Of a DNA stretch of 64,000 nt, positions 23,601 through 35,261 are shown one piece after another. A program made the position numbers and the translations under genes. Within the stretch, counting starts at the first letter, position 1. Each line of letters starts with the position of its first letter. Source of the stretch: Carpediemonas membranifera BICM. Taxonomy: Eukaryota; Protista; Fornicata. Below the pieces are notes generated by a model, which was given only the letters and a program-made list of their open reading frames with translations, was not told the origin of the DNA and ran no database searches. Where the stretch lies: positions 421,314-485,313 of the forward strand of contig JAHDYR010000011.1 of NCBI GenBank assembly GCA_019828565.1. Reading direction: 5' to 3'.

Positions 23601-24311
23601 AGAGACGAGAGAGAGCCCAGAAACAACGGCGTCCATCGGTGCGACAGAGAGCGCAGGGACGTCAGGCCTCATCATGAGGACAGAGAGCGCAGGGACGACG
23701 GGCCTCACCATGAGGACAGGGAGCGCAGAGAGGTCAGGCCTCACCACGAGGACAGAGAGCGCAGGGACGACGGGCCTCACCATGAGGACAGAGAGCGCAG
23801 GGACGATCAGGGCAGATACTCCGGAGAGAGCAGACGCCGCTCACCCCCTCATGGGACCGGCAAGAGGAGTGGCAAGGACAGGGCGGTGAGCTACACAGGG
23901 GCTGGAAAGAGGGGCAAGCTCGACGGCGACGCCCGTTACGAGGCTGGAAGCAGACAGTCGAGTGACAGCGACGCGGAGAGGGACGAACTCAGGAAGGAAC
24001 TTGATGAAGCCAAGAAGCTGATTCTCGCACTCAGGGCCAGGGACAGCAGGGAGGAGGAGCAGGCGACGCCAACCCCAGCACCGGCTGACACCCAGGGAAA
24101 CCAGGGTACCGGCAAGGAGCACAGGGTAGTCCGTCACAAGAAGAGGACTCGGACAAAGAGGTCTCGCAAGCCGAGACAGCTAAACCAGATGGAGCTAGTG
24201 GCCCAGATCGTGTCAACGGTGATGAAGACCATGCAGCAACAACAGGGGATGGCAACCGAGAACCAGAGCGATGATGGCAGTGACAGTGGCAACTCAACGG
24301 AGACCGATTAA
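20631..24311 (+). CDS. LINE-B ORF1 (interrupted by LINE-C at 21315-22321; one frameshift near 23305)
   Basis: Removing LINE-C and one TSD joins RLAAKLR|DRETRENWK..HMEKFLL in frame. Continues into ORF 23349-24311 across a G5 run. Confidence 0.8.
21315..22321 (-). mobile_element. LINE-C: 5'-truncated antisense copy of a LINE-B relative (end of ORF2 + 3' UTR)
   Basis: TSD GCAGCCAAGCTGAGA at 21300-21314 and 22322-22336. The - strand encodes GSEDIWEGLTAGLRELAKVYNSF* (compare LINE-B GSEEIWEGLRAGLRALAKVYDSY). Ends caccataaat(ttct)n. Confidence 0.93.
23643..23806 (+). repeat. 36-bp tandem repeat x4.5 within ORF1 (DRERRDxxPHHE)
   Basis: gacagagagcgcagggacg..ggcctcaccatgag units with two alternating variants. 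Confidence 0.95.
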
Positions 24312-24560: not shown

Positions 24561-24628
24561 TGACGGGACAAGGGCAGATTGCAGGGAATTTCCGAAAATT
24601 CGCAGGATAGGAAAGACGGAGTACAAGA

Positions 24629-27600
24629 ATGGAAACGATCAAGATAGCGAGCCTGAACACTGAGGGACACATCGGGAAGGGAAAGGACTTCACGGCCTCA
24701 ATGGCAACGGCTATAAGGATGAAACTGAGCGACACAGATGCAGTATGCATCCAAGAAACGTGGAGGACGGCGAATACGAGGGTACACAACTTCATAGACT
24801 TCGACTACGCAATGGCAGGGAAGGAAACAGAGGAGGAGCTAGCTATGGACAACGAGAGGAGGAAGAAAGAAGCCCAAAGCCAGCGCCGAATAGATGCCCA
24901 GCTGGGCATAGCAGGGAGCAGTAGCCGGACGCCCAGGACGAGGGGTACTAGAGAAGGAGTGGGCACAATCATCAACCCAAGAGCAAGAGGGAGCTGGGAC
25001 GTAGGCATCACAGATAGCTTATCAGGGAGGATACAGGTGAGCATACTCAGAACCCATAGGGACATCCTGGTGATCAACGTGTATGGCCCACCGGTCGGCC
25101 ACGGAAGGGAGGAGAAGGACGAGTTCAGGGACGGAATAAGGAGCATTATGGAGATGAAAGGAGAGATGGAAACAATCATCATAGGGGACTGGAACCTCGA
25201 CCCCAAAAGGATAGCCACAATGGCAAGATGGAAGGACCTGATCAGGGACTATAAGCTGGGAGCAGTGATCCCCATGGAAGGTACCCTCACCAAGGGAACT
25301 ACCACTCCGGACTTCGCGCTGGTATCATCAGGGATCAGAGGAGCAAGGATAGAAGTACTGGATGCTAGTCGACTCGGAGTCTGGGGGTCAGCCCACAACA
25401 TGATAAGACTGGAATGGAGGGAACAACGGATCCAACGGACTACAAAGAGAGAGGAAGTCCTAGACATACCGGGCGTCAGAGTGTGGAACATGAGGAAGAA
25501 GGCTGAACGCACATCAGTCAGAAGACTGCACCGTTTTAAGAGCCTGGATGAGTGGGAGGAGGATATCAGGAAGGATATGGGCGAGCCGTCAGGTCACCCA
25601 GGCAGTGGAGACAGGGAAGAGGTCATCAAAGAAAAGGTGTGGTCAGAACTCCGGCACACACCATGGACAGAAGAGGGAAACAAGACCAGAAGTGAGATCA
25701 TGAAGCGTGAGCTACAGGCCTTCTGGGGAAAACGCAGGGAAGAGTGGATCCAGGACCTCAGCCGGAGCGCGAAGGAAGGATACAAAGCATCCAGGTCCAT
25801 GGTGGAAGCAGCGGTAAGAAGATGGTGGTGTGAAAACCAGTTCAAGGGCATGCCAGAGAGCATACTGAAGGACGGGAAGATTACCACCAACAAGGAAGAA
25901 ATAGGTAAGATCCTCCTACAACAGTATGCAGGAGTGAGCAGGGGCAGGGAACCGGAGTGGAAGGATAGAGGCAATGGAAAGAGGGAGGACGAATTTAAGG
26001 AGAGAGAAATACGAGAAGCGATCAGAAGGATAAAGAGGGACACTGCACCGGGACCGGACCACACTACAGGGGACATGCTCAGGGACACAGATGACCAGGG
26101 GATCGCTCAGATAACTAGGCTCATGAACAGGGTATACAGGGAGGGCAAGATCCCGACAGCATGGAAGTATGCTACAGTCTCGGCCATCCACAAGACAGGG
26201 AAGCCCAGAGTGAAGCCGGAGTCGTACAGACCCATCTCGCTAACACCACTACTGTATAGGGTGTATGGTAGGCTCCTGAAGAGAAGATTAGAAGCAGCCA
26301 CATGGCACCTCATCCCAAGAGAGCAAGCAGGGTTCCAATCGGATAAGGACGTAATACAACAGATACAATACATCGTGCAGAGACACCAGGAAGGGGGGGA
26401 GACCACGTCGATCTTCCTAGACATAGAGAAAGCCTATGACACCGTCCCGAGGGACATCCTCATGGATAAGCTGCAGGGAATGGGGGTCGAAGACCACCTC
26501 ATCAGGGCAATACAGAGTACACTAGAAGAGACATGGATCTCGGTGAAGGGGGCAGGGTCATGGGAGAGAACAAACAGGGGAGTGAAACAAGGATGTGTCC
26601 TAGCGCCGACCCTGTTCGTTTTTTTCATGGCAAACTGGCCTCACCTGGTCAGGAAGAAGCATCAGGGACAAGAGTACGATATCAGGGAACCACCAACGGA
26701 GTTACCAAGAGTCCGGGACACGCTGCCGGCCACCCTAACCATGTTCGTGGACGATACAGCGGTCACAGGGGAGACACCGGAAAAGAGCAAGATAGTGGCG
26801 AACCTAGTCATAGAAGTTATCAAGGAGCACCTCATGAGGGCAAATGCACAAAAGAGTGAGATGATCAGTGTAGACAGGGCAGCAGTGGCGAGAGTGGGGG
26901 AGTTACCCTAATGGCAAAGAGGAAGCTAAGTACCTAGGTCTCTGGATAGCCAGCGGAAAAGACCCACTGGCAGCCTGTATCAGAAAGAAGCGGGAGCAGA
27001 GCGAAAGGTACAAGAAGCTAGTGAGAAGAGTGGGATGGACCAGAGGCAACATGCCGGCGCTAGCCAGCAGGCTCCTCCTCGAAGTTTACATATGGCCGAG
27101 GATAATGTTTGGAGTGGAGGTGTGGGGCTACGCAGCAGGGGGGAACAAGATATGGACGGATTGGCAGGGCATCATGGCCGGAACAGGCCCAGGTGGGGGC
27201 TCGGTCATGCGCATCTTGAACGGATGGATGGACCTGCAAGCCCACCTGGAGATGCTAGCAGTCAAGAGGATCGTGACAAGCAGGGGCCAGGATATACCAA
27301 TCAGAGACAGGGTCTGGAAGGAGGGATCGATTATGTGGAAAGCCAGGGACTCAGTGAACGCACTCCTCAGAGGAACAAGAGAGGGAGCAACGAATGCAGG
27401 GAAGATAGACTTTGGTAGGGAGATGGTAAGAATGAACTGGACCAGGAGGTGCAAGAGCAAGACAGCGGTGGGGCTCATGGAAGTCCTAGGACCCAAACGT
27501 ATGGGAAAGTGCATGGCGGGGAAACCGGCCATAAGTAGGAAGACAGGGAAGTGGCAGTCAAGGGCAGAGTGGAAAAGGATAGTGTCGGTGGCAGCGAATG

Positions 27601-28076
27601 TCAGCCCGTCTCCATCATCAGCGGAAAGGGGAGAAGGCCCAGAGCGAGCGCTGGCGGACCTGGCGATGGGTGAGGAACTCAAACACAAGATACAAAGGAG
27701 GTGCCCCCTGTGCACAAAGGAGAGCGAGATAGAGTTACTGTGGCAAATAGCGAGAGAGCAGCCAAACCAAGCCAGGAAGCAGGCACTAATCAGGGAGTGG
27801 GTAAGGGGTCAGCCGCTGGGATCGGCGGCCCACATTATGTGTGAGTGCCCAGAGGTTGAAAGAGGAGATGACTGGGAAAAGATATGGAAGACAGCTAAGG
27901 AGAGGACCAGGGAATTGCAAGTCAGAAGAGGCCCGAATGGGAGGTGGTATGAGAAGAGGCCAATCTTAGAGGTGCAACAACTAGTGTTAACAGGGTCGGA
28001 AGAGATATGGGAAGGACTGCGAGCTGGGCTGAGAGCCCTGGCAAAGGTCTATGATAGCTATAGAATAGATGGATAG
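24629..28076 (+). CDS. LINE-B ORF2: APE endonuclease, reverse transcriptase, zinc finger (one frameshift near 26908)
   Basis: SLNTEG, CIQETW, INVYGP, IGDWN, PDF, SAH; APGPD, SYRPISL, QAGF, LDIEKAYD, GVKQG, MFVDD, KYLGLW; CPLC..HIMCEC. Confidence 0.95.
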
Positions 28077-28850
28077 ATAAGGAACACCACATCCAGAAAG
28101 GGGGCAGGGAAGCATAGACTCTGGGATCAAGGGGAGACCCCCATGTTTCCCAGGGAGAGGGCAGGGCCAGGGACAGAGGAAATCCATCAATTGGATGGTT
28201 GCACCACTCGCGGTGAACCTAAGGAAACTGCAGGGACTGAGCATGGGATACGGGGGACATGACGTCCCCGCCGCCCTTGTGAACGATAGAGGGACGCTGG
28301 GAAGTGTAGCACAAGAGAACTATCATAAGGGGTACTAGGCCTTGCAGATCTAGAGTCTGTGTTAGCCCTAGCCCACGCCGCCTAACAGGGGGTAGATGAG
28401 AGGGACTTAGTTGCTTTCTCCGCCCACGGGTAGGCCACTTAACAGGGTCGTGGGGGCACTGAACAGGGAATCTGGAAAGAGGAGAGGGTGCCATGCTTGA
28501 ACGACCCCGTAGGGACTGCAGGGAATCAGGGAGTGCTATAGAGAAGGTCTTGCAGGACAAACCTGCCTGTGGAAGCACCGAGGACAGACCCCCAGGCTCC
28601 CTGGAAGCTGCCGGGTTTACAGGGAGACAGGAAAGCGCTCAGCGCACGGAGATGGCGAAGGCCTATGGGGGGAAGTGAAATCGGGAGTGAGCGGAAGCAG
28701 TAGCACCGAATCGCTCGTTGGACGCAGCTGACAAGTTCAATCGCAGGGAGGAGGCAGCGCCCCGGGGAACTCGGCTCCAGTAATAAGGGAGATCAGCCTA
28801 AGTAACCGGGGCCCGATACCAGGCACCATAAATTTTCCTTCTTTCTTTCT

Positions 28851-29574
28851 TGGTGACTCCTAGGTACTCCAGGCGTTGTGTGGGAGTTAGGATGCACTTG
28901 TTGAGCCCTGGGATAGCTCCCAGCGACCTCATGAGCGCGACTATTTGGGGAGCGGCGTCTGCTAGGTGGCGACGTGACCGATGTGAGATGAGAAAGTCGT
29001 CGAGGTACACCGCTATTGTCACGTTGAAGCGGTTCGCGAGTATCTTTGCTAGCTGGATGGACGTAGACTGGAACACGAACGGGGCAGCGGTCCAGCCGAA
29101 CCCTAGTGTGTTGTATCTGTACGCCTGCCCGTTCGGGAGGACGATCCCCAGTAGCGTGGAGTCGGTCGGAGCCACACCCATCTGGTGGTAGCCGGAGGCT
29201 AAGTCGATCTTGAGCATGAAGTCGTTGCGCTTGAGGTTGCGCACTGCTCGTTTTAGGCCGAAGAGCCGGAAGACCCGCGTCTCCGCAGTGATTGCGTTGA
29301 GGTCGCGTAGGTCGTGTACCGGGCGGACATCGTGCTCGCCCTTTGCAACCGCGAAGAGCGGGGCACTGTGCCGGAGTTGCCCGCTGGTACAGGGTGAGAT
29401 CACGCCAAGTCGGACCATCTCGTCGAGCTTTGGGGTGAGCCGTGGGTCCAGGCGCCGTTGTGGCGTGGGTGGCGGGGGAGTGCCTGTTAGCTTGATAGGT
29501 ACGCCGTGACGGAGCCAGCCGACCACCTCGTCCGAGGCGCCGAGCCTTTCCCATAACCACCACCTCGCGTTCAT
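28851..29574 (-). CDS. DIRS reverse transcriptase, N-terminal part
   Basis: RPVHDLRDLN, KIDLASGYHQ, LGFGWTAAP, VYLDDFLI, EYLG. Confidence 0.92.
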
Positions 29575-29600
29575 CGACGGGAATTGATGAACAGAGGTTG

Positions 29601-30155
29601 TTATGTTCTCTTCTTCTTGTGAAACCCCCCCATGTTACCGTTGGTGTCCTTACGCCTGCCCTTAGAGCGGGCCTTCGCTGCGCAGTAAGCGATGGTGCGT
29701 CTGCTCTTGCTTTCTGTGCTGTTGAAGAGGTCCTGAAACAGCTCGGTCGTGGCATCGGACCAGTTATCATCTTTGAGGTCTAGGACCATTCTACGAGCCT
29801 GTAGTTCGAGAAGAAGACGTTGTTTCGTCGCGGAATCTGGGAGAGCACTAGTGATCACGACAACGCGTTGAAGCCACTTCGCTTCTGCCTTGAGAGGTCT
29901 CTTGCTTGGTAACTCCGAGAAGGTGTCCATCTCTGCCAGAGTTGCATCTATGTCCTCCATCGTGTCCTCCTCCAACGATTCGGAGGTATTGAACCTAGCA
30001 ACGGTGGAACTTTCGAGCATTTCGTCGTCAGGTTCTTTCTCTGGCGGAGGCGGAGGAGCAAGCCTGTTCAGGGCTTCGGACATGGAATTGATTGAAGCTT
30101 CTAGCTTATCTAAGCGTGTTGCCGTCGGATCCGGCGGATCCGAACCTTGCGCCAT
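29601..30155 (-). CDS. DIRS ORF1 (gag-like)
   Basis: ORF from MAQGSDPP immediately upstream of the RT; the listed ORF's extension to 30299 runs into the Gypsy LTR. Confidence 0.7.
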   Translation of the reverse strand: MAQGSDPPDPTATRLDKLEASINSMSEALNRLAPPPPPEKEPDDEMLESSTVARFNTSESLEEDTMEDIDATLAEMDTFSELPSKRPLKAEAKWLQRVVVITSALPDSATKQRLLLELQARRMVLDLKDDNWSDATTELFQDLFNSTESKSRRTIAYCAAKARSKGRRKDTNGNMGGFHKKKRT

Positions 30156-30237
30156 TCTGTCCGCATAAACTGCGTGACTCGCCTGACCGGCGAAACACCT
30201 TTTGCCCGGAGTGAGGCTATCGCATCGCCCTCCGCTC

Positions 30238-30324
30238 TTTGGCGTATAAAGCGCTGTGGATGGTACTTCATTTAGATTAAATACACACACTAAATACACA
30301 TCAACTGATTACGAAATCACAACA
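30238..30324 (-). repeat. 3' LTR (87 bp)
   Basis: Identical to 34675-34761; TGTTGTG...CGCCAAA on the - strand. Confidence 0.97.
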
Positions 30325-33300
30325 CCTCCGTCTTCTCCAAAGAGCTTGCCGCGCAACTTGTGTGCGTCGATATACGACTCAACTTGTTCGTTTCCTCTCA
30401 CATCCTCATCATAGCACTGATAAGTATCTTCTTCAGGCTCGTAACCGCTCCAGCGTAGTCTGAAAACGATGTTCCCGTCCTCATCGGTCGAATGGCTCAC
30501 TACTGATTCGACAACGTATAATTCATCATCATCATCAAACTTGGCGAGCTCAGATATCTCCTCCTCAGTTAAGAAGGATCGATGGAACCTCCTCAGACGG
30601 TGTACATGTGACACCAGCTCCGCCCTCCCTGAAAAGGCCTGTAAGGCGTATTGGTTGTTCGGAAGCGAGTCTTTCACCATGAATGGGCCTCGGTAATTCG
30701 GGAGCGTCTTGCTACGCGGACCCTTAGGTGGGGCCAGCAGGACATAGTCGCCAGGCTTGAAGACATCAGGCTCTACTGAGGGGGTAGTCCAAGGCAGAGG
30801 ACTGGGTGGCTCTGGCGAGGTCGTGGATCTCCCTCAATCTGCTCAGCAACCCGGAGGTATAAGACGAGGTGGACTCGTAAGAGTCAAGGTTAGGGGTCAA
30901 CGTCCTCGGTAACAGGCTGTTGGATGGGGAAAGGACATCGCCATAGAGCATGGCGTAGGGCGTGGTGTTAATGATCCTGTGCTTGGCGTTGTTCATGACA
31001 AACTGGACCAGAGGTAGACAGGAACTCCAGTCGCTCCAACGTCTTCCAAGGGAAGGCAAGAGGGTCTTCAGATGACGCCTAACCTCGCGATTGGCCCTTT
31101 CAGCTATACCGTTCTGCTGGGAGACGTAAGGGAAAATGGTGGTGTGTTCGATATGCAGAGACCGGTTCAACGCAGCAATGGTGTCGTTGACGAACTGGGA
31201 GCCGTTGTCGGAGTGCAAAAAGTGGGGCAAACCGTGACGTGAGTACACTCTTTCCACCAAGGCCTCGGCAGCGCTGAGAGCGCCAAGGTCACTCAGTGGG
31301 ACCAGCTCGACCCATCTTGTGAAGTTGTCAATAATTGTCAGCACATATTTGGATCCAGACGACTCGTCTACTGGCAGGGGACCAATGGCATCGATAGACA
31401 CCGTGTGAAAAGGGGTGTCGGTGACAAGGTGGCCAAGTTGCGTCTTGACAGTCTTCTGGAGACGGAATTTCTGACAGATGCCACAGCTGGAAATGAAGGT
31501 AGCCGCATCCGAAGACATGTTCTCCCACTCGTGGCCTAGGTCTTTGAGGGTCTGAACAGTGGCGGCTACTCCCTTGTGACCGCTAAGAGCGTTGCCGTGG
31601 ACCTTGCGGAATAGATCAACCTTCTCCTCTTGAGATAGAACGGGGAGGCGAGACTGGACAGCGTTACAGAAGGAAGTTTTCGGTTGGAACATCCTAGACA
31701 GAGTGTCAGCAAGGACATTAGTCTCTCCGGGGATGTAAGCGATCTCGAACATGTACTCTCCTAGTCTGTTCTTCCATCTGTTGACCTTCTCCGACTTGCT
31801 AGCAGTCAAGAAGGTGAGGTTCTTATGGTCAACCTCAGCAACAAAGGAAGTTCCTCTGAGGAAACTGTCGAACTTCAAGACGGCTTCGTAGAGGGCAGCA
31901 GCCTCCTTCTCAGTTATAGACCAGCTCAACTGCGAGCCGGAGAGGGCACGAGAGAAGAAAGAAATGAAGCGGGTCTCGCCATCAATGACTTGGTACAAAA
32001 ACGGCGCCGAGTCCATAGCCCGAAGCATCGGTCTGGAGTCTAAGGGGATGGTTATAGTCAGGATGATGAAGCATGTCCGCATTCCGGAGAATCTCTTTCA
32101 GATCGGACAGAGCTTCGCGGGCTGAGTCGTCCAGAGAGAAGGGAACGGGGGTCTCCTTGAGTAGGCGCAAGAGAGGATGGGCGACCTCAGTATATCGGGG
32201 AACGAATTGACGACAATAGTTGAATATGCCGAGGATCGCGCGCAACTCAGAGAGAGATCTAGGCTCCTGCAGGTTGTCGATATCCAGCAATCTGTCCGGG
32301 TCGATAGTCATGCCACTCTCGTTCACGATGAAACCCAAGAAACGAGCCGAGTCAGTGCCGAACTTGCACTTGTTTCCGGACAAACGGAGATGGTGAGAGA
32401 CGAGGCGGTCCAAGACAGCCTCCAAGTTCTCGAGGAATTCCTCGGCATTCCGGCCGACTACCAGTAGGTCATCAACGTAGATGATCAAGCGTCGCTCTCT
32501 CACGATGTCGTCAAAGATCTCCAACATCACCTTCTGGAAATGGCCGGGGGCGTTCATTAGGCCAAATGGTATCCGCTTGAACTGGAATTGCCCGCTGTGG
32601 CAGACGAAGGAAGTCAGGTAGCGAGAGTCTTCGTGCAGCTCGAACTGGTGGTACCCGGAACGGAGGTCTAATGAGGCAAAAGTACTTCATACCGGCAGCC
32701 TGTCTTAGCAAGGTATCGCAGCCTTGGAGAGGCACGGGTTCCGGCACCGTCACGGCGTTGACTTGAACATAATCCAAGACCATTCTCTCCTTATCCTTCT
32801 GGTGAACATAGAAAAGAGGCGAGGCCCAGGGGGACGAGCTGCGCTCGATAATGTCGCGAGCGAGAAGGTCGTCGATGATGTCGTCGGTCATCTCTCTCAG
32901 AGGCTTGGACATGTTGTAGGGCTTCGCGGCAACCGGTTCGGCACCTTCCCGCAGCCTCACTATCATGGGCCTGGCCTTGGCTGGGAGGGAGTCTGGCTTC
33001 TCAAACAACTCTCGATACCGATTCAAAAGGGAACAGACACGCTGCTTTATAGCAGGAATCGTGTCCGCAGTAGCAGTCTCGATTAATGAGTCGACAGAAG
33101 AAGGAATGTCTGCAAGGGGATCGTGTGAAGCGTCAGAGGTTTCGGGACGACCAAGTGTAACCGCGTCGGGGTTGAGGAGCCCCAAGTGAGACGAGATCTC
33201 CTCAGAGAGGATGAGAGGGACATTCAAGTCCGGCATCACATGCACCACACATGTCTCGGAGATAGCGGAAGGAACGCAGCCGGGTCTCTTGTGCGTTATC

Positions 33301-34658
33301 AGTAACTTCGCATCGAAGAGGGCCATCGTCTCGGAGTTGTTGGCGGAGATCATGATGTGTCCCGAGGGACGAGTTGCCGGGAATAGGTCCTTAGTCATAT
33401 CAGACCACTCACGCAGACGTAGGTAAGAAGCCTCACTGCACTGATCAGCAAGGGCGGGGAGGTGGGTCTCGTGACCATCGATCGTTATGACAACGTTGGC
33501 GGGCTGGCTATGAGTACCGATGGCGTTCGAATGGCCGCGCTCCGGAGGGTTCGGGTTCAGATAACACTTGTCAGTCGAGTGCTTACCCCACTTCTTGTGG
33601 AATGGACACCACACGAAGCCCTCGCCGGGACTGACCGACTTGTCAGTGAGATCAGCGATGACAGTGGACGAACCCTTAGCAGAGGTTTGACCAGTGGGTG
33701 CGACAACCTGAGTCTGGGCCGAGGAGGGACCAGTTTGATGAACCTCGGGCTTGGGCTTGACCGTGGGAACGAAGGGTTCAGGCTTCTTGGCAGAGGAACT
33801 GTCAGGCTTGACAGTCGACGATGTCTCAAACTCAATGAGTCGAGCGCGAGTATCCACAAGGACGCGAGCATCTTCGAGTCGTTCCTCGTTGGCGACCATG
33901 TCTGCCAGGATTTCATCGAAAGCAGACTTGCCTAAACGGGCAATCCGGGACCAATGGGCTTGTAGGGTCTTCGGCAAGGTGGCCTTGATAACAGAGGAGA
34001 GAGCCTTCTCGGAGTAGGAGTCTCGCATGCCTAGGATGCGGACGATGAGTGATACACGGTGCGCAAACTTCGCAAGGGCGATCGAGTTGGCGGTTGCTGA
34101 AGGCTTAGCGGCTTCCAAGAACTTGGAGAGCCAAGCCTCGACGATGAGATTGTCGTCGGGCAACACGGCCTGAGAGATAAGGGAATTCAGAGCTTCGTTC
34201 AGACTGTCCCGAGCTTGGGTGTAAGTGACCTCACTCTCCGGAGTGACGTAAGCCTCTTTGCCCTGGGCGAGCTTAAGGACGGCAGAGACCCTGGTGAATT
34301 GAGGCAGTAGGGAGATGGTCCCCAAATGAGGGAGCAACGAAGCGGCGATCGAAGCAACATTGGGATGCTTGATAAGGTGTGCGTCATAGTCGAGGATCAA
34401 GCGGAACCACCCTTCCTTCGAGGAGGGGAGAGCGCAATGGAAAATCTGGCGTTCGATCGATCCCGGCTTGAAGTCGCAGGGGAAGAGCTTAAAGATAGTC
34501 TCGAAAGACTCAAGGCATGAAGAATCAAGCGTGGAATCCGAATCAGGGACATCATGGGCACGAACATCGGGCTTCTTCGCGAGAGAACTCACGAGAGTGA
34601 CCAGATTACCTATAGTCTCTTCTAGTGCCGCTATACGAGCGTCATAATCGGACTGCAT
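30309..34658 (-). CDS. Gypsy gag-pol polyprotein (three homopolymer frameshifts near 32678, 31998, 30782)
   Basis: Knuckle CPFH..H..C; protease LADQCS; RT DLRSGYHQ, YVDD; RH TDASGYGLG; IN H..H..CGIC, IDAIGP, SDNG, AERANR; GPF; chromodomain YVVESVVSH..RWSGYEPEEDT. Confidence 0.93.
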
Positions 34659-34674
34659 AGCTCAAATTGATCAA

Positions 34675-34761
34675 TTTGGCGTATAAAGCGCTGTGGATGG
34701 TACTTCATTTAGATTAAATACACACACTAAATACACATCAACTGATTACGAAATCACAACA
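34675..34761 (-). repeat. 5' LTR (87 bp)
   Basis: Identical to 30238-30324. Confidence 0.97.
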
Positions 34762-35261
34762 CGCTCCGGGCCCGTTACCCGAGGTAACCTTACTGACGAT
34801 GTAGCGCCAGGAAGGCAGCGAGAACAGCGTCGGCATGGCTCCGTGTGTCTGGAGGCTCGGGTCCACTTCGCACAAATTTTTATTGCTCACCTGTATGTGG
34901 GATGTCGAAACCGCGAAAGTAACGTCTGGGAGGCGCACTCATTGTCTCTGAGGATCAGTACCGCCCGAAGAACGGGCCATCTATCACGCTACGCCCAAAC
35001 GGGCGCAGTTGTGAGAGGGTTAATCTACCGACTGAGCTAAAGGGACCCGTGTGACACAGTTGAGCAAAAACCGCACGCGGAAAATGGTTTTAACTCTAAC
35101 TAATAACTGTGACACGCCCACTGTGGTTTACATACGACTTTACCTTACCTTACGATACATGGCAATATGTTAGCTAGACCGCTATGCGCAGCATATGGCC
35201 TTGTATCTGCCCTGTTTGACCACCGCGTGATCGTATCGAACTGATGTTGTCCAGAAAACTC

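Follow-up and report, generated by a model that had tools for sequence, protein, structure and literature searches.

A perfect 16-bp palindrome lies at the primer-binding position of a Ty3/gypsy chromodomain LTR retrotransposon of Carpediemonas membranifera, and comparison with related elements confirmed it as a real and conserved feature. From the sequences compared, we consider it rather probable that two RNAs of the element pair at this palindrome and that the cut 5' fragment of one of them primes reverse transcription on the other. The chances that such dimer priming in trans constitutes a third route for LTR reverse transcription, beside tRNA priming and the cis self-priming of the Tf1 type, seem to us about even.

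Structure of the element and of its LTR boundary

The element extends from 34761 to 30238 on the minus strand of the window, the whole 64-kb stretch of DNA that was analysed. Two direct LTRs, a polypurine tract (PPT) and a target-site duplication, the features of an LTR retrotransposon, are all present (Table 1). The order of the Pfam domains, with reverse transcriptase (RT) followed by RNase H and integrase, is that of Ty3/gypsy, and the chromodomain found at the integrase C-terminus (PF00385) is one mark of a chromovirus in the sense of GyDB/REXdb. The identity of the two LTRs suggests a recent insertion. The reading frames are broken near 32690, 31997 and 30780, and contigs of public runs show a one-base difference at the breaks at 31997 and 30780.

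Table 1. Features of the element and of its surroundings, in coordinates of the 64-kb window.
Feature	Position	Strand	Remarks
Palindrome, perfect, 16 bp	34663..34678	.	axis between 34671 and 34670; primer-binding position
5' LTR, 87 bp	34675..34761	-	TG start, AA end; CA 2 nt inside the end
3' LTR	30238..30324	-	identical to 5' LTR
Leader, 16 nt, LTR end to gag ATG (34658)	34659..34674	-	without TGG
Target-site duplication, 5 bp, upstream copy	34762..34766	-	identical to downstream copy
Target-site duplication, 5 bp, downstream copy	30233..30237	-	identical to upstream copy
Purine-rich tract, PPT by position	30325..30338	-	abuts 3' LTR; within integrase reading frame
gag-protease and RT start	32511..34658	-	without Pfam match; aligns with full-length relative P0001
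RT and RNase H start	31982..32686	-	PF00078 (E 1e-25), PF17919
RNase H, integrase zinc finger and core	30766..32097	-	PF17917, PF17921, PF00665
Integrase C-terminus with chromodomain	30309..30833	-	PF00385 (E 1e-6); stop codon inside 3' LTR
Hinted RNA 5' end, LTR position 57	34705	-	junction with 25 non-genomic adapter-like letters; one contig from X4 and one from X5, both of one sample
Hinted poly(A) site, LTR position 64	30261	-	A-rich tail at the end of a single X4 contig

Other retroelement sequences and forms were observed in the same window. In a contig of public runs X1 and X2, 1339 nt of the RT-RNase H region (31653-32993) are missing, and its depth exceeds that of the full form; either a copy with a deletion or a spliced transcript would account for it. 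The insertion of the element falls immediately upstream of a gag-like frame and of an RT reading frame (PF00078) that belong to a second retroelement (28798-30232 and 34767-35100), which we take to be DIRS-like in look. Five overlapping 72-nt repeat matches with a spacing of 36 nt (23607-23822) are located upstream of a further RT frame (24611-28076), the whole being probably a non-LTR element. The host is a eukaryote, and for its TBC-domain protein the named relatives reach no more than 41% identity.

The first-pass annotation had described a palindrome straddling the 5' LTR boundary and a 16-nt leader devoid of TGG, a description borne out by the coordinates and by the LTR and target duplications. 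Four nucleotides of the palindrome belong to the LTR and 12 to the leader, only 4 nt of which remain past it. There is no TGG within 25 nt in the window element, and the TGG-starting primer-binding site (PBS) adjoining the 5' LTR, by which the class primed by tRNA 3' ends is recognised, is absent from it. With 1.17 palindromes of 16 bp expected per simulated window, two were found in the 64 kb, the other one at 24894-24909, and the chance of finding one within 20 positions of the LTR end is about 6e-4. What rises above chance is the position at the LTR end and the conservation in relatives, not the 16-bp length.

Contigs of public runs X4 and X5, of unrecorded library type (for X1 and X3-X5 the label as RNA is a guess), give a weak hint of an RNA start near LTR position 57 and of an RNA end near position 64; contigs cannot prove starts or ends. 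These positions would delimit an R region of about 8 nt (34698-34705 and 30261-30268), resting on single contigs. The adapter-like letters are also joined at 31929, at a genomic look-alike, so that joins of this kind are not all 5' ends. The ends of X3 contigs at 34704 were rejected as an RNA start, being 30 nt from the LTR end, as an assembly fork would give.

Conservation of the palindrome among related elements

Relatives were searched for with an alignment of 37 RNase H-integrase sequences, and the loci retrieved comprised 79 from metagenomes (from the best 80 of 348 confirmed stretches), 12 from viral contigs and 35 from genome contigs. In 55 cases leader windows could be placed with the gag ATG as anchor, taken as the initial ATG of a long frame, and not by palindromes; they were scanned for CA followed by a palindrome of 8-14 nt and then T, the expectation being derived from dinucleotide shuffles. 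This arrangement is found in 32 of the 55 leader windows against 1.5 expected, the metagenome loci being among the best 80 of 348. The 32 matches include the window element and three family duplicates, which leaves 29 families after merging, the window included. Relatives that keep the palindrome have 30-65% protein identity to the window element.

Among the 23 leader windows without a match, 5 belong to elements ended by TA rather than CA, and in 6 others the site lies beyond the 250 nt scanned. A further 6 come from outgroup or unplaced loci, and the last 6 (L008, L014, L039, L046, L055 and L060) from close relatives in which there is no site. Five of these six close relatives appear, as judged by eye, to lack the LTR end. 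The clade member L014 has a short inverted repeat, with a 3-nt loop between its arms, and no palindrome after its apparent LTR end (L014 1-60), and may be a true exception or a variant.

Under a wider rule, and with a single site chosen by hand for each element, 62 sites were obtained, 60 of them in the tree, representing 52 families at less than 70% identity. The 52 families have 36 different cores, and all four pair types occur at the two innermost pairs; half-sites of 4, 5, 6 and 7 nt are found in 10, 30, 8 and 4 families, respectively. Pair counts in this set are 100% paired by construction, and only the counts from the 55 windows and from free centres are unbiased by palindrome selection. 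When the two innermost pairs were left free, both were complementary in 27 matches against 0.49 expected, and the centre was mismatched in 14 matches against 5.9 expected, each of the 14 belonging to a locus that has a perfect site at another place or shows no LTR end in the stretch scanned. Conservation of the palindrome with compensation in related families, proposed in the first-pass annotation as a check, is what these 32 of 55 leader windows and 36 cores in 52 families display.

In a FastTree phylogeny (no bootstrap), 59 of the 60 rows with a palindrome fall in one branch (SH 99), together with a protein of Carpediemonas and three loci that have no site. This branch stands apart from the named plant, algal and animal gypsy proteins, in a tree that contains neither Tf1 nor Skipper nor Ty3 and whose deep forks are open. 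L078, with 32% of its alignment columns filled, is placed outside the clade. The tree left out L122 and L123 (less than 200 aa) as well as the loci without a site, except L014, L027, L060, L081, L084, L086 and L088. The window element and L011 share the core together with 12 nt past the axis (L011 60-76) at about 35% protein identity, in different subclades; L044 shares the core alone with the window. Otherwise, less than 8 nt past the axis is common to families of identical core, the exceptions being L011 with the window lineage and one pair of related families.

Several of the loci retrieved had features of their own. Two different families, each with its own palindrome, stand in tandem about 60 nt apart in L002 (4460-4710), and telomere-like hexamer repeats occur shortly downstream of the LTR and palindrome in L054 (3470-3502). 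The related retroelement sequences L092-L126 are carried by contigs of bacterial genome bins and are probably eukaryotic contamination of these bins. L081, an outgroup, is a 12-kb IMG/VR contig with a terminal repeat of 1251 nt and a TGG-type primer site, retrovirus-like in nature.

Probable pairing of two RNAs and its proposed role in the initiation of reverse transcription

The known priming routes were looked for in the same families. TGG within 5 nt of the LTR end is found in none of the 52 families, a count partly bound by the choice of sites. A self-primer of Tf1 type, defined as in PMC6317226 by at least 10 nt of perfect complement upstream, occurs in 0 of 49 families (0.32 expected), and a second inverse-complementary 9-mer of GalEa type, 12-41 bp downstream, likewise in 0 of 49 (0.75 expected). 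The 64-kb window contains no tRNA gene, its interval 34500-34900 has no Rfam match (short sites being below the reach of Rfam), and its leader is a mixed palindrome without the polypyrimidine stretch that follows the 5' LTR in Skipper. No primer site other than the palindrome was found in the TGG, Tf1-type and GalEa-type tests.

The remark of the first-pass annotation that the LTR offers only a weak match of Tf1 type is correct: the match is present at LTR positions 15-25, and the longest perfect complement in the window element is 5 nt (7 nt with G-U pairs). The best duplex of this match reaches -6.1 kcal/mol with a bulge, and its location is apparently in U3, upstream of where the RNA is hinted to begin. 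The first 15 nt from the hinted RNA start, a start hinted at by contigs alone, pair with the leader at -0.8 kcal/mol.

Folding energies separate a hairpin from a duplex. Folded alone, the palindromes have a median energy of 0.0 kcal/mol, with 9 of 52 at or below -1, whereas the homodimers have a median of -10.95 kcal/mol (-17.8 for the window). The 57-nt 5' RNA of the window element likewise goes from -8.1 kcal/mol as a monomer to -32.8 as a dimer. Moreover, the two innermost pairs are complementary, yet in a hairpin they could not pair. Because the energies are near zero and the would-be loop positions covary, the hairpin is disfavoured, and an RNA dimer appears favoured over it. The first-pass annotation had suggested tRNA-independent priming through a hairpin or an RNA dimer. 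A functional palindrome replacing the tRNA site is supported by the compensatory conservation across 52 families and the 0 of 52 with TGG; as to the mechanism, the hairpin half of the suggestion is lost to the median energy and the covarying loop, and the dimer half gains from the median duplex energy.

In the mechanism that we propose, the two genomic RNAs of one particle would pair head to head through a duplex of 10-20 bp at the site, and the RNase H of the element would cut one of the two, in the manner of the Tf1 RNA duplex, at 4-5 nt past the axis. A role of RNase H in the cut that yields the Tf1 self-primer was reportedly described by Levin in 1996. The 5' fragment would stay paired by about 9-12 bp (12 in the window element, 11 in the commonest class and 9 in the shortest; the Tf1 primer has a length of 11 nt), and its extension across U5 and R of the intact RNA would be minus-strand synthesis. 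Plus-strand synthesis would copy the last bases of the primer, which would restore the site and provide for the second strand transfer. A palindrome would be needed because the rebuilt site equals the original only if it is palindromic. At L043 7201-7264, one contig ends in the LTR, the palindrome and an inverted LTR end, which form a perfect 64-nt fold-back on the axis. This may be the product expected from plus-strand read-through of the primer, and, coming from one contig, it may also have arisen artificially during library preparation or assembly.

The right end of the LTR bears on this mechanism. The end at 34675 is fixed by the agreement of the target duplication, of a second insertion, in which an X3 contig leaves the LTR at 34675, and of L001/L002, which have 65% protein identity to the window element, an identical 16-mer and an identical LTR end point. 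The LTRs of the window element and of L001/L002 end in AA, so that the canonical TG...CA termini are not found there, a trait that the first-pass annotation had not mentioned; those of L003 and L015 end in CA. In the window element and in L001/L002, a CA stands 6 nt from the axis, yet the integrated end is located at 4 nt. The other mapped distances from end to axis are 4 for L011 (contig end), 3-4 for L037, 5 for L003 and 5 for L015 (two flanks). An end placed 4 nt from the axis rather than at CA favours priming over mere pairing, in the one lineage formed by the window element, L001 and L002, where a plain substitution of CA by AA explains the end equally well. The idea that the AA end derived from an L011-like ancestor with CA was dropped as evidence, L011 not being the sister of the window element in the tree.

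Some observations count against priming in trans by a dimer: L014 shows no palindrome at its apparent LTR end; the hinted R of about 8 nt is very short for strand transfer; and the 12 nt shared past the axis by L011 and the window element would be explained by a shared host primer. If dimer priming in trans is nevertheless true, genome pairing and primer formation would be one event, and the initiation of reverse transcription would be confined to genome dimers and independent of any host primer. Where the cDNA ends on the right would be determined by the palindrome axis, not by the terminal CA, and priming between families whose palindromes differ would be impossible. The mechanism would also define a widespread protist Ty3/gypsy clade, and the copia site of GalEa would find its explanation as a product of convergence.

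The palindrome might instead be a dimerisation or packaging signal only, like Ty1 PAL or the retroviral DIS, with priming by some other route, a possibility that we regard as real if unlikely. It explains the covariation of the centre and the duplex energies equally well, for covariation shows pairing and not its purpose, and a packaging dimer would covary as well. Palindromes have indeed been proposed to mediate Ty1 dimers (PMC4974528, in its accessible text). However, known dimer palindromes occur in addition to a PBS according to the available part of PMC5445492, and no other primer site was found here. The palindrome begins at the last LTR base throughout the clade and fills the primer position, leaving 4 nt of leader in the window element, an arrangement that favours priming over mere pairing.

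A single RNA could also form a hairpin at the palindrome, be cut behind it and prime in cis, the loop being flipped at each cycle. Such flipping would favour a symmetric centre and could yield the fold-back of L043, and an extended U5-leader stem does fold in the window element (32-nt piece, -5.4 kcal/mol, z -2.0). Nevertheless, longer pieces and the whole 5' RNA are no more stable than shuffled sequences when folded (z -0.5 to +1.2), 43 of the 52 family palindromes are weaker than -1 kcal/mol, and the cDNA end would have to keep the 4 palindrome bases of the LTR in RNA form, which makes this route quite improbable in our estimation.

Very doubtful, in comparison, is priming by a host tRNA half or another small RNA, with the palindrome as an incidental feature. 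The leader, read as its complement, agrees with a generic anticodon-loop pattern, which is of a kind likely to turn up by chance. Half-tRNA priming does exist in copia lineages (PMC6317226 and PMC10886601, as far as their available text goes), and the stretch common to L011 and the window element, preserved at so low a protein identity, speaks for it. Against this, the 36 cores would each require a palindromic host RNA, sharing past the axis is confined to the two exceptions given above, Rfam matches nothing around the site within the limits of its reach, and the cited survey found half-tRNA priming in Ty1/copia only, in the part of it that is accessible. Finally, the reading of the palindrome as a chance feature of one AT-rich leader, for which the roughly one 16-bp palindrome expected per 64 kb might speak, is hardly credible and is refuted by the 32 of 55 leader windows against 1.5 expected, with their changing letters.

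Comparison with known priming systems

REM1 of Chlamydomonas is a possible case of a self-primer at the LTR end. How reverse transcription starts in elements with neither a tRNA site nor a self-primer is stated to be open for GalEa, Skipper and SM-Tcn1 in the accessible portions of the respective papers (PMC5445492, PMC5006619 and PMC2864245), to which, as to the other sources cited here, our statements are limited. The elements described above suggest a rule for one clade, namely a perfect palindrome that starts from the last LTR base, is free in sequence and has the LTR end 4-5 nt from its axis where mappable. Annotation tools would thereby gain a PBS class that they are missing. With LTRs of 87 bp, a leader of 16 nt and an intact full-length relative (P0001, L001), the element offers a compact test case.

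The Tf1/sushi group (Tf1, Tf2, Tj1 and Tcn1) resembles the window element in consisting of chromodomain Ty3/gypsy elements that are free of tRNA and take the primer from their own RNA (PMC4600332, PMC6317226). Tf1, however, primes in cis by pairing its RNA 5' end with a non-palindromic PBS (PMC4600332, PMC6317226, bioRxiv 2022.12.06.519325), whereas the primer proposed here would be the site itself on a second RNA. In SM-Tcn1, no primer site was identified according to the available text of PMC2864245. Skipper of dictyostelids is likewise a protist chromodomain gypsy element with neither TGG nor self-primer, the priming of which was left open (PMC5006619); it differs by its polypyrimidine stretch, and a palindrome is mentioned 0 times in the accessible text of that paper. 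Palindromes that pair two genomes are known in Ty1, as PAL, and in the tRNA-palindrome dimer of Ty3, but these accompany a tRNA PBS, and the Ty3 palindrome sits on the tRNA (PMC4974528, PMC5371799).

Across the full-text literature within reach, which leaves aside most subscription papers and the Repbase notes, neither a palindromic PBS in gypsy elements nor a model of priming in trans was found, and palindromes are unmentioned in the main text of Kojima 2024 (PMC10886601), as far as it is accessible. The closest case in print is the palindromic site of the fungal GalEa copia elements, a 10-nt palindrome including the last LTR base for which Donnart et al. 2017 proposed a PBS role, and which fits no described priming model according to its authors (PMC5445492). 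The GalEa palindrome study is also cited for the TRIMs of bivalves (PMC6934838). As in the window element, the Conserved Hairpin Site of GalEa replaces the PBS by a palindrome with the final A of the 5' LTR among its bases, and there is no tRNA PBS (PMC5445492). The two systems differ in other respects. GalEa belongs to Ty1/copia and the window element to Ty3/gypsy, with integrase after RNase H; the GalEa palindrome is 10 nt long with two forms in 85% of families (PMC5445492), as opposed to 10-20 nt and 36 cores here; and its pairing partner is another, inverse copy located 12-41 bp downstream, of which 0 of 49 families here have an equivalent. The palindromic site of the Ty3/gypsy clade would represent a tRNA-free variant of the LTR priming site, apparently convergent with that of GalEa, for which we propose a mechanism of priming in trans.
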